The notes beneath the pieces are model-generated. The model was not told the origin of the DNA and searched no databases. It saw only the letters and a program-made list of their open reading frames with translations. DNA of 64,000 nt from Octopus vulgaris (taxonomy: Eukaryota). Shown here piece by piece: positions 2,404 to 50,422 of this stretch. Each line of letters begins with the position of its first letter. Position 1 is the first letter of the stretch. The DNA is taken from the NCBI GenBank assembly GCA_951406725.2, contig OX597830.1, forward strand, positions 70,122,001-70,186,000, given 5' to 3'. Position numbers and translations under genes: made by a program.

Positions 2404-2535
2404 GCGATGACGACATCAGAGGCGGTGGTGAAGATGGTAGTGCCGGTGAAGGTGGTGACGCTGATGAAGATGGTGGCCATTGTGATGGCGGCGGCAGTGT
2501 CGATGGCGATGATGAGAATAATGATATTGATGTGA
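2195..2535 (+). repeat. Compound (GAT)n/(GTA)n/(GGT)n microsatellite
   Basis: Long GAT runs; source of the poly-D/M/I/S ORFs. Confidence 0.95.
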
Positions 2536-2791
2536 GGAAATAATCGGGAGAACAGATTGACCAGACAAAATAGATGGAATATGAACGCTCAGAGCCGAGA
2601 GGAGGGAAAGAACTGGAGAGAGAGGGGGAGAGAGGGAGGGAGAGGGAGAGAGAGAGAGAGAGAGAGAGAGAAAGTGAGAAAGAGAAGGAGAGTGACAGGG
2701 AAGAAGGGAAGGAGAATGCAATGGTAGTGAGAGTGAGCGACAGAGTGTCAAGCAGTTTAAGAGAGGACGATAGACAAATGACGCACACATA

Positions 2792-2865
<74 letters not shown>

Positions 2866-3077
2866 CACCCACTCACACACACACAAACATATGTGTGTGT
2901 GTGTGTGTGTGTTTGAGAGAGAGAGAGATAGAGAACAATTAGAGTTAATGAATAGGATGAGAAATACTGATTCTGAAGGGGGAGGGGCAGTCATAAAGAA
3001 ATGAAATGAGGAGTGAGAGAGAGGTGGGGAAGAAGAAAGAGGAAGGGAGATAAAATGTGTATTCATGTGTCATATAT

Positions 3078-3125
<48 letters not shown>

Positions 3126-3191
3126 GTATATATAATATATATACTATATATCTGTGTATCTCTAAATGTATGTATGTATACATATACATAC

Positions 3192-3259
<68 letters not shown>

Positions 3260-3719
3260 ATATATATGCTTCTATATATAATTACACACACACATACACA
3301 GACACACACACATATGGATGTGAATATACGCACATATGTTAGGTGTGTATTTGTCAGTGTTGTGTGTATGTATTTGTTTACAGAGAAATAGAGAGATATT
3401 TGCGAAATAATAAAAAATATATAAATGAATATACAATAACAATAACAATAACAACAAACAAAACAAGAAAATTAACATAAACATTTTTTAAAGGAATAAT
3501 TGGATGGAATATAATTATGTCCCCTGTTTCTATGATCCTTGTCGCTTGTAGTGATGATGGTGTTGGTATCGATGATAAAAAACGGTGGGGGAGGGGTTGA
3601 TGGTGATGTTGGTTATGATGGTGTTGTTGTATTGGCGAAGTTGGCAGTGATGATGATGATGACGATGGTAGTAGTGATGGCGGTGATAGGGATGTTGGTG
3701 ATATTCGTAGTGATGATTT

Positions 3720-3934
3720 AAGGCAGCGAGCTGGCAGAGTCGTTAGCACACCGGGCAAAATGCTTAGCAGCATTTTGTCCATCTTCATGTTCTGAGCTCA
3801 AATTAGGCCGAGGTGGAATTTGCCTTTCATCCTTTCGAGGATCGATAAATTTAGTACCAGTTGAGGACTGGGGTCGATGGAATCGACTTAATCCCTTCCC
3901 CCAAATTTCAGGCCTTGTGCTTCCAGCAGAAAGG

Positions 3935-3935
<1 letters not shown>
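3720..3935 (+). mobile_element. SINE family A, tail type 1, followed by (ATT)n
   Basis: AAGGCAGCGAGCTGGCAGAGTCGTTAGCAC head; GCCTTTCATCCTTTCGAGGATCGATAAATTTAGTACCAG core; ...AATTTCAGGCCTTGTGC...AGAAAGGATTATT end. Confidence 0.9.
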
Positions 3936-3983
<48 letters not shown>

Positions 3984-3986
<3 letters not shown>

Positions 3987-4205
3987 CGGCGAGCTGGTAG
4001 AAATGGTTAGCGCTCCGGGCAAAGCATGCTCAGCGGCATTTCGCCCGTTTCTTTTTTTTTCGTTTTCTTCTAAATTTCCCGAGATCGACTTTGCGTTTCT
4101 TCCTTTCGAGATCGATAAAATAAATACACATTGAGCACGACTATACACTCCCCCCCCCCCACCAAAACACAATTTCAGGTCCTGTGCTTATATGAGAAAA
4201 GATTA
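3984..4205 (+). mobile_element. SINE family A, diverged, in tandem with the previous copy
   Basis: Same head (AGGCGGCGAGCTGGTAGAA), core and tail type 1. Confidence 0.8.
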
Positions 4206-4671
4206 TCATCATTTTTATTATTAATGGTGTTGTCGTTATTATTATTACTACATCCGCCATTTGCCACAGGGACGACAGATAAAGAAGACATGACAAGAAC
4301 TAAGTTAAAAATAAATAAATGAATAAATAAGATTTTAAAAAGTAAACACTGTGAGGGTTTACGTAAAGCTCCTTATAAAAAAAAACTGCGCATTGCACAC
4401 AAAAATATTTTCTTTGAAATTCACCGCAAGTGTAACTAAGTACGTAAGTTATTTTGCAAGTACTTGCGCTGCAGTTGTGTTTCTCCGTCGATCTGACAAT
4501 AATAACCTTACCCATCTCTTCGGTTGAAGTATACAAAAGTTTCTTTGTATGTCGGATGAGTAACAGAGCACTGAAAGAACATTGGCAGTTCGCTGTCAAA
4601 GACGTACGTTTTCTCGTCGCTGCACGCATAACACACAAACACACATCACGTTTATAAACAAAATACAAATG

Positions 4672-4674
<3 letters not shown>

Positions 4675-4750
<76 letters not shown>

Positions 4751-4770
4751 GTCTGTCTGTCTGTCTATCT
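4675..4770 (+). repeat. (ATCT)n microsatellite
   Basis: Direct tandem ATCT/GTCT units. Confidence 0.95.
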
Positions 4771-4789
4771 ATAATTCATAATTCATTTT

Positions 4790-4827
<38 letters not shown>

Positions 4828-4910
4828 ATATAAATATATACATATGTATATATAAATATATACATGTATATATGTAAATATATATACATGATATATATAT
4901 ATATAAATAT

Positions 4911-4989
<79 letters not shown>

Positions 4990-5009
4990 TTTATCTATTT
5001 ATTCTTTTG

Positions 5010-5205
5010 ATTTTTCAGTCATTTGACTGCGGCCATGCTGGAGCACCGCCTTGAAGAGTTTTAGCCGAGCAAATCGATCCCGGGACTTACTTTTAAAGCC
5101 TAGTACTAAGTTACGAGGACGCAAACACACCAACACCGGTTGTCAAGCGGTGATCGTGGGACAAACACAGACTCAAAGACGTACACATAGAAATATATAC
5201 GAATA

Positions 5206-5265
<60 letters not shown>

Positions 5266-5397
5266 TCCACTCACAAGACTTCGGTCTCCCCGAGGATGTA
5301 GTGGCAGACATTTGCCCAAAGTGCCCAAAGTGCCACGCAGTGAGACTGAATCCGGAACCACGTGGTTGGGAAGCAAGCTTCTTCCCACACAGCCATA
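5010..5397 (-). mobile_element. tRNA-derived SINE, family B (CORE-like), internally deleted
   Basis: Matches the fuller copy at 19375-19799 (CAGTCATTTGACTGCGGCCATGCTGGAGCACCGCC ... GTGCCACGCAGTGAGACTGAATCCGGAACCACGTGG). Confidence 0.85.
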
Positions 5398-9934: not shown

Positions 9935-10006
<72 letters not shown>

Positions 10007-10010
10007 CAAC

Positions 10011-10042
<32 letters not shown>

Positions 10043-10089
10043 TAATAATAATAATAATAATGATAATAATGATAATAATAATAATAATG

Positions 10090-10123
<34 letters not shown>

Positions 10124-10864
10124 TAATAATAATAATAATAATGATAATAATGATAATAATAATAATAATGATAATATAAGTTCTTTAAAATAGTAGGTGT
10201 AAAGCATCATAAATTATCGTACAATCCTTGGCGGTGAGAATACCTTCTCCATCCATTTCTATCGGATTTGGATGTTAGGGTCTATTCATTCACACTATAT
10301 TGGCTCCTTTAATACAACTTTTACATAATTCACTAGGATTCGTTACTTTGTCTGCCCACATTGACCTTTTGTTCTTTTTTTTTTTTCGAGTGGTACTTAT
10401 TCAAGTTAATAGGGGTCGAAGAGGCCAAAAGTTCTGTTGTCTCACCCCTATCTTCAGCTCCCTGTACTCTGCGACCCCTTTCATTATAACCACGAAACTG
10501 ATTGCTCCTTCGAGCGAATGAAAGACGGGGGCAAGACCCTCACAATAGTTTCGGTTGACAGCTGGGTCCGTCGTACACGACTTAGCAATCGTTCGACACA
10601 ATTTCAACACCTCGCCAATCTTTCGACCCTGAACGAGTGTATGATGGGGGACAGGGCTCAAAAACGTCCTAGTAACGGCATTACCGCCACAGCACGGCTA
10701 AACTTGAAGTAACAATTTCTACGGTGGTTCTACAAGTTCTTTGGAATATATCTATAAGTTCTGACTTGTGAGTACTCCGGAAAATAAGCTACAGGATAGC
10801 TTATCAATATCTGGTATGCCACTGTTATCATATATTAATCCTCTATGAACCAACGAGGGGGATA

Positions 10865-48679: not shown

Positions 48680-48728
<49 letters not shown>

Positions 48729-48731
<3 letters not shown>

Positions 48732-48940
48732 TAAATGAAAGAATGGAGTCGAACGAAGATGTTAACAAAATTCCTTTACTCTCGACATATGTTTCGAAGA
48801 CAACATGGTTTCATTCCAAAGGAATAAATGGTGCATTATGCAATCTTCTCATCAGGAAAGAAAGGGAGCCTCTCTCGACAACAAGACAAACAAAAATTTG
48901 TTTGACGATAAACATAGGATAATTCATTCACCTATTTAAA

Positions 48941-48943
<3 letters not shown>
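48729..48943 (-). mobile_element. ~215-bp hammerhead-bearing element inserted in (TA)n (Penelope pLTR- or retrozyme-like)
   Basis: Unique block bounded by (TA)n on both sides; contains the canonical hammerhead listed next and has no ORF. Confidence 0.65.
48773..48865 (-). ncRNA. Hammerhead ribozyme, type I, canonical core
   Basis: RNA: CCUUU-CUUUC-CUGAUGA-GAAGA-[43 nt]-UCUUC-GAAA-C-AUAU-G-UC/GAGAG-U-AAAGG. Stem I is CUUUC/GAGAG plus CCUUU/AAAGG, stem II is GAAGA/UCUUC, and stem III is the palindrome ACAUAUGU. The GUC triplet predicts a cut between 48784 and 48783. Confidence 0.85.
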
Positions 48944-48983
<40 letters not shown>

Positions 48984-49890: not shown

Positions 49891-50035
49891 CAACATATAA
49901 AAAAAAATTATAGCAACGTATAGAACATTTATGATGTACAGTTCTATATTTAAGACATGAGGAATTATGTACATTATTTACACTATTTATATTATTTACA
50001 TTCGACGGATATTTGTCCCCATCTCGTTTGTTGTT

Positions 50036-50081
50036 AACACAACGTTTCGGCTGATATACCCTCCAGCCTTCTTCAGGTGTC
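50036..50081 (-). ncRNA. Minimal type I hammerhead (PLE-like, dimer-type stem III)
   Basis: GACAC-CUGAAGA-A-GGCUG-GAGGGUAUAU-CAGCC-GAAA-CG-UU/GUGUU. Stem I is GACAC/GUGUU, stem II is a perfect 5 bp, and stem III is reduced to the palindrome ACGU. Confidence 0.75.
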
Positions 50082-50308
50082 TTGGGGAAATTTCGAACCT
50101 GAGTTCTCATTCATAAGGTATTTATCGATGTTATTAATATTATTATTGTTATTATTATTGTTGTTGTTGTTGTTGTTAATATTGTTACTATTATTATTGT
50201 TTTTGTTATTGTTCAGGTCACTGCTTTAATAATAATTATAATAATAATATTAATAAAGACATCGAAAAATACCTTAAGAATGACAACCCAGGTTCAAAAT
50301 TTCCCCAA

Positions 50309-50354
50309 GACACCTGAAGAAGGCAGGAGGGTATATCAACCGAAACGTAGTGTT
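50309..50354 (+). ncRNA. Minimal type I hammerhead, stem II mutated
   Basis: GACAC-CUGAAGA-A-GGCAG-GAGGGUAUAU-CAACC-GAAA-CG-UA/GUGUU; two mismatches in stem II relative to the sister copy. Confidence 0.6.
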
Positions 50355-50422
50355 AACGGCAAACAATATGAGGACAAATATCCGTCGAATATAAATAATG
50401 TAAATAATTTATGATGTACATA

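Follow-up and report, generated by a model that had tools for sequence, protein, structure and literature searches.

A type I hammerhead motif and its look-alike second site in a truncated Hydra-like Penelope-like element of Octopus vulgaris

Described hammerhead systems and layout of the octopus locus

Hammerheads in the pseudo-LTRs (pLTRs) of Penelope-like elements (PLEs) are already well described, and the present finding matters little as it stands. In the account by Cervera and de la Peña (2014; PMC4209133), these motifs are of type I, lie in both pLTRs about 3 kb apart and carry a palindromic helix III, and their genomic copies are mostly single and truncated, with some pairs on opposite strands; the octopus element is alike in these respects. 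It departs from the minimal motifs of that study in having a longer helix II and a longer helix I, the latter interrupted by an internal loop or bulge, and it adds evidence that compensatory substitutions have preserved the palindrome step by step. The type I fold, a weak palindromic helix III and residence in an animal genome are likewise shared by non-LTR retrozymes (Cervera and de la Peña, 2020; PMC7229834). The latter are described as tandem arrays without coding capacity, whose 150-450 bp units each contain a core (PMC7229834; bioRxiv 10.64898/2026.07.22.740005), whereas the motif studied here lies within a coding element, whose parent unit encodes reverse transcriptase and endonuclease (RT-EN), and forms no short tandem. 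A limited open-access search for hammerheads in Penelope-like elements of octopus returned only PMC8557442 (Craig et al., 2021), and the motif of the present family is absent from the Hydra rows of the hammerhead table published there. The locus is modestly useful in that it concerns a Hydra-like lineage with a long-helix-II hammerhead missed by Rfam and an Asn-rich linker replacing the cysteine motif.

The analysed window comprises 64,000 nucleotides of O. vulgaris contig OX597830.1. A preliminary description had pointed to a canonical core and to a 9-mer occurring twice at 93-nt spacing, all of which was confirmed when the sequence was checked (Table 1). Read on the minus strand, the CUGAUGA core (48855-48849) is followed by a 53-nt helix II domain, GAAA (from 48795), ACAUAUGU, C17 (48784) and GAGAGUAAAGG. 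The helix II domain, with its internal loop and terminal hairpin, had been hidden behind two dots in that description. Exactly two occurrences of CTCTCGACA were found in the window (48779-48787 and 48872-48880), and the two C17 positions, 48877 and 48784, are 93 nt apart. Around the single core, a type I helix I of 5+5 bp with a 1-nt bulge can be drawn, as can a type III fold with an 8-bp helix I' (three G·U pairs) and a 3-bp helix III'.

The hammerhead motif is present in the window beyond chance, with two matches to the hammerhead descriptor compared with none in 19 of 20 block shuffles and one in the remaining shuffle. The Rfam check proposed earlier was also run: neither of the two descriptor motifs was detected as a hammerhead at gathering level in the window, and a local search at E<=10 gave no hammerhead match, for the present motif probably because of its 53-nt helix II domain. 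A match to an Rfam model is a detection aid, not the definition of a hammerhead. As regards type I membership, CUGANGA, GAAA and NUH are all present, helices I, II and III are conserved, and helix I is open-ended. We consider it highly probable that the motif is the type I hammerhead of a truncated PLE, located in its 3' UTR/pLTR and predicted to cleave, probably in dimeric form, at no site other than the downstream GUC (48784/48783), and that the upstream site is likely a coincidence.

Table 1. Features of the hammerhead-bearing insertion, in window coordinates
Feature	Position	Strand	Basis
Helix I 5' strand, CCUUU CUUUC	48856..48865	-	Pairing and alignment
Catalytic core C3-A9, CUGAUGA	48849..48855	-	Sequence
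Helix II domain, 53 nt: basal stem, internal loop, terminal hairpin	48796..48848	-	10 consensus pairs, 5 changed on both sides
GAAA core and self-complementary helix III octamer ACAUAUGU, predicted dimer helix	48785..48795	-	Self-duplex -7.0 kcal/mol
Predicted type I cleavage site, GUC/G	48783..48784	-	Canonical geometry and conserved type I fold
Helix I 3' strand, GAGAG-U-AAAGG	48773..48783	-	Proximal helix I 95.7% paired, 23 sequences
Upstream UGUCGAGAGAGG, the "second site"; homologue of the helix I extension 5' strand (UGACAUAAG in sister subfamilies)	48869..48880	-	Alignment, MFE folds of L069, L103 and L072, pair counts in columns 31-40
U-rich 3' strand UUUUGUUA, partner of the upstream segment in the extended helix I of sister subfamilies	48763..48770	-	Folds and pair counts
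Predicted subfamily-specific upstream hairpin sequestering the core, competitor of both hammerhead folds	48839..48892	-	MFE; z -2.9 vs shuffles
(TA)n tract, 3' side, target microsatellite	48684..48728	.	
(TA)n tract, 5' side	48944..48980	.	
5'-truncated 3' UTR/pLTR piece of the Penelope-like element, equivalent to L035 2132-2307	48724..48899	-	98.9% identity over 176 nt to the full element
Inverted arm, 40 nt, equivalent to L035 2422-2461 (long 3' end of the element), orientation opposite to the truncated piece	48903..48942	+	100% identity over 40 nt

The parent element and its Hydra-like features

The insertion in the window consists of a truncated piece and an inverted arm between (TA)n tracts; the same pairing of piece and arm was found in loci L003 and L004, and the anatomy matches that published for PLE insertions, with inverted truncated arms and (TA)n targets (PMC8557442). 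A search of the 2.8 Gb genome yielded 1793 candidates, 40 of which were scored and showed 93-100% identity, and the 23-mer of the downstream site has 628 exact copies. At 30 loci the flanks are common up to 1.5 kb upstream, where a GIY-YIG endonuclease is encoded. Locus L035 holds a complete unit comprising (TA)n, a pLTR with a hammerhead at 2176, an ORF at 2498-5085 that carries a frameshift, a pLTR with a hammerhead at 5358, and (TA)n. Its two hammerheads lie about 3.2 kb apart, which is the length of the repeat unit. A single ORF with RT and C-terminal GIY-YIG was recognised by its motifs in L035, L033 and L076, and the other traits of EN+ Penelope-like elements, namely partial tandems acting as pLTRs, inverted 5'-truncated copies and a pLTR hammerhead, are all present. 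Pfam gave no significant match to the RT or EN pieces, so the classification rests on motifs. The window motif resides in a truncated copy of this high-copy element with RT and C-terminal GIY-YIG; the retrozyme-like monomer proposed earlier is not supported, the motif being part of a protein-coding PLE with a repeat unit of about 3.2 kb. A tblastn search of the window for the RT or EN of the element found neither. The window copy, which lacks an ORF and a family partner in the window, is likely inert or only passively transcribed.

The family has preferred 3' ends at L035 positions 2307 (18 alignments) and 2462 (15 alignments). These are 155 nt apart, each following a similar TTCATT-containing motif, a feature reminiscent of the PLE "tail" yet far exceeding the 30-40 bp reported for it. 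Just upstream of the full element, at L035 647-960, lies another Hydra-like endonuclease end, distinct from that of the element and equipped with a type I hammerhead of its own (core 906). Elsewhere in the window, positions 49979-50411 contain a 184-nt inverted repeat (87%) bearing a second, unrelated minimal hammerhead, which looks intact on the minus strand (core 50076) and has helix II mismatches on the plus strand (core 50314); this repeat probably represents two inverted pLTRs of a different Penelope-like family.

Members of the Hydra clade are defined by DKT and RWK, the lack of an internal CCHH, CxxC and CxH around E and N, a CxCX5C linker and a preference for (TA)n (PMC8557442). With the clade as described there (Craig et al., 2021; e.g. 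Hydra-1_Obim) the octopus element shares the C-terminal GIY-YIG, DKT, CxxC and CxH around the conserved E and N, the lack of internal CCHH cysteines, (TA)n targets, inverted truncated arms and a type I hammerhead near the 3' end, and its RT matches that of Hydra-1_Obim motif by motif when the two are compared by eye. In a motif check of five long intact ORFs from related subfamilies, SDKT, YRDD, CxxCxSE and CxHW were each present in all five, and SDKT in L035 too. Where the Hydra clade has RWK, four of the five ORFs have RWL, and the fifth gave no match. A Cys between YIG and CxxC was absent in four of them, and the fifth was anchored on an earlier YIG. The insertions of the element in (TA)n correspond to the preference of the clade. 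By contrast, the CxCX5C linker was found in none of the five long ORFs and in neither of two C-terminal pieces of the window subfamily, a long Asn/Ser-rich linker standing in its place, and for this reason the element was filed as Hydra-like and not as a strict member. The element also has an ORF of about 900 aa and a unit of about 3.2 kb, whereas Hydra clade elements are generally below 3 kb; its hammerhead has a 53-nt helix II domain and an 8-nt palindromic helix III, whereas the Hydra rows of the published table give a loop 2 of 3-10 nt (PMC8557442). Judged by motifs and by the RT comparison, the element presents most of the clade features and resembles the Hydra clade.

In the ORFs of L076, L082, L083, L088 and L090 and in L033 4571-6028, the RT-EN linker is Asn/Ser-rich low-complexity sequence without CxCX5C. 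Insertion into (TA)n despite the missing cysteine linker fits poorly with a role of that linker in directing microsatellite targeting. Between a 192-nt stretch of the window (9944-10135) and the Asn-rich linker region, similarity amounts to 67%, which may reflect low complexity only. Among the related subfamilies, one with about 68% RT identity (L086, L092-L098) has many copies with an 899-aa open frame, suggesting recent or ongoing activity, and in another (L101, L102 and L106) U4 of the core is changed to C, giving CCGAAGA, and the 3' UTR is short.

Conservation of the type I fold and of the helix III palindrome

An RT search gave 132 scored places, 40 of which were taken for their spread of identity and long frames; together with L001 and L035 they make up 42 loci. 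Homologous hammerheads (54 in total) were found in 38 of these loci, whose RT identity to L035 ranges from 66 to 100%. Three loci had no hammerhead, and two motifs were left out, one truncated at the edge of its locus and one with a 2-nt deletion in helix III. There were 40 distinct motif sequences, from which 23 of diverged subfamilies were aligned to lower redundancy. As the search pattern demanded a downstream GUH, the presence of GUH was not counted as evidence.

Across the 23 sequences, the type I fold was 85.1% paired, with 44 double-change cells and a covariation of 0.232; these statistics were reached in none of 500 shuffles, a comparison that is inflated by the kinship of the sequences and by the structure having been partly read from them. 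Slid controls were 34-50% paired. Among the parts of the fold, proximal helix I was 95.7%, helix II 93.5% and helix III, in dimer register, 98.9% paired; distal helix I together with its extension reached 72%, the extension being partly conserved. Helices I, II and III of the type I fold are conserved and covary, which supports the claim of the preliminary description that the hammerhead is of type I and its stem III palindromic. The type III fold that was also claimed can indeed be drawn with a perfect core, but in the same 23 related sequences it was only 59.7% paired, a value reached by 210 of 500 shuffles and lying below that of its own -2 slide. No conservation of the type III pairs beyond shuffles was thus detected across the related subfamilies, and the locus has neither the conserved closed helix I' nor the stable open helix III' that mark type III, the predicted energy of helix III' being -0.1 kcal/mol.

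The helix III hexamer was CATATG in 29, CATGTG in 8, CACGTG in 16 and CATGAG in 1 of the 54 motifs, while the non-pairing CACATG, permitted by the search pattern, occurred in none of them. In the RT tree, copies with CACGTG are nested within those with CATGTG, and these within those with CATATG; CATGTG is also found in L070 and L106. Helix III has accordingly undergone stepwise compensatory change from U-A through U·G to C-G with the palindrome kept (CAUAUG, CAUGUG, CACGUG), and the order CATATG to CATGTG to CACGTG is the path expected under selection on a self-complementary helix. The kept palindrome points to dimeric cleavage and lends comparative support to the model in which PLE hammerheads act as dimers. 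Two cores would pair through the ACAUAUGU palindrome and cut at GUC, and the paired cores may process partial-tandem transcripts into units of about 3.2 kb. Processing of this sort has been proposed for PLE hammerheads (PMC4209133); for one PLE, hammerhead mutants are reported to have had no effect on insertion in vitro (PMC11167929).

The duplicated 9-mer and the upstream site

The 9-mer duplication was found in 28 of 32 motifs of the window subfamily, at loci chosen by similarity to the window, and in none of 20 motifs of the close sister subfamily, which has TGTTGAGAT upstream and TGTCGAAAG downstream. When the conservation of both 9-mers was followed through these motifs, in line with a check suggested in the preliminary description, the duplication held as the consensus of the window subfamily but failed in its close sister. 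More distant subfamilies carry GCTGACAT, GTCGACAT or GGAGAATT at the homologous upstream place, and in several of them the upstream segment lengthens helix I by pairing with UUUUGUUA downstream. Judging from the aligned sequences, the upstream GAGAGAGG is homologous to the 5' strand of the helix I extension. The purine-rich upstream segment would descend from the 5' strand of a longer helix I whose partner is the U-rich downstream sequence, a descent that would predispose it to resemble GAGAG; purine-rich sequence beside the pyrimidine-rich strand of helix I would therefore be expected. With the upstream segment shuffled, a duplicate of at least 9 nt spanning the site arose at p ~6e-4 (0.06%), a naive estimate that ignores post-hoc selection and pairing constraints, and the shuffle probability of the 8-bp type III helix I' was 0.003. 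These probabilities speak against a coincidence, and so does a weak arrangement compatible with type III (helix I' of at least 4 bp, helix III' of 3 bp), seen in 3 of 11 subfamily representatives: the window subfamily, its sister (4 bp, same position) and a further subfamily in which it lies elsewhere. The upstream look-alike probably arose by coincidence and without selection, and is specific to the window subfamily. Of the two fallback explanations in the preliminary description, chance comes closest, and a relic of a tandem array is contradicted by the lack of tandem cores in the genome. A general excess of type III decoys across subfamilies was considered and rejected, as without the pre-selected pair 1 of 9 representatives had one, against about 0.3 expected from the summed shuffle probabilities.

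Predicted energetics provide secondary evidence. With the core enforced, the type I fold reached -28.6 and the type III fold -23.1 kcal/mol, the latter being 5.5 kcal/mol less stable. The unconstrained MFE (-30.4 kcal/mol) is an upstream hairpin that buries the core and corresponds to neither hammerhead, and the pair probability of type I helix I is only about 0.09, so the energy model, in which Mg2+ and tertiary contacts play no part, can arbitrate only weakly. The pair probability of helix III' is at most 0.0002, its duplex energy of -0.1 kcal/mol comparing with -7.0 kcal/mol for the dimer palindrome. On the nascent RNA, where the core-sequestering hairpin dominates, the exact type III fold has a probability of about 4e-9.

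These data bear on the type I/type III switch that the preliminary description had put forward, with release of a 93-nt retrozyme-like monomer. A single core would then cut both sites, first through the type III fold on nascent RNA at 48877/48876 and then through the type I fold or dimer at 48784/48783, and the 93-nt unit could circularise. If true, such a switch would be new: a natural ribozyme in which one core serves two sites, and a path by which autonomous PLEs could give rise to very small circular RNAs. In its favour, a perfect core allows either fold to be drawn, the duplication belongs to the consensus of the window subfamily and exceeds naive chance, and helix I' could already be in place on the nascent RNA ahead of transcription of the downstream strand. 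Nevertheless, the unconserved type III pairs, the sister subfamily without the duplication and the predicted weakness of helix III' and of the nascent type III fold all speak against it, and so does the genome, in which neither tandem cores at 88-98 nt spacing nor an exact 93-nt circle junction were found, as opposed to the 628 normal sites. No 5' end of an aligned copy coincided with either cut at 32 loci, a comparison of low power with few truncated copies. Contigs from four sequencing runs, compared with L035:1895-2800, showed eight joints, none of them going back 93 nt, which speaks neither for nor against the circle, as contigs drop rare forms. The predicted MFE of the 93-nt circle also lacks a complete hammerhead. 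Cutting of both sites by one core is therefore very unlikely. The proposal that the single core of this one young subfamily has gained a second, upstream substrate and become a bistable self-excising ribozyme, a retrozyme arising from a PLE pLTR, appears highly improbable as well. A limited open-access search for natural two-site hammerheads turned up engineered ribozymes only, and the non-circular permutations of PMC10085705 represent another phenomenon.

Alternatively, the upstream segment might be a selected attenuator covering the core and the 5' strand of helix II, which would silence the ribozyme until refolding by a partner or protein. For both the nascent and the full RNA this hairpin is the MFE, and it beats shuffles in the window subfamily (z -2.9, p 0.01), and a strand that pairs with the 5' half of the hammerhead necessarily resembles its 3' half. 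The effect is significant in only 1 of 18 representatives, however, and that one was pre-selected; a conserved inhibitory hairpin was rejected, the other 17 giving z values from -1.2 to +1.7. We accord selected attenuation a very slim chance.

A derivation of the 93 nt from the last monomer of a non-LTR retrozyme tandem array would agree with a direct 9-mer repeat at unit spacing and with the report that retrozymes are derivatives of PLE pLTRs (bioRxiv 10.64898/2026.07.22.740005). It is exceedingly improbable, given that the sequences following the two 9-mers differ, that the upstream flank runs on into the 3' UTR and ORF of the PLE, that tandem cores are lacking in the genome and that reported monomers measure 150-450 bp (PMC7229834). 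The preferred reading remains a type I hammerhead with a probably coincidental upstream look-alike. Against it, L088 carries a 9-nt duplicate of its own at another position. In L073-L075 a perfect palindrome of 10 nt, ATGTCGACAT, occupies the place homologous to the "second site".
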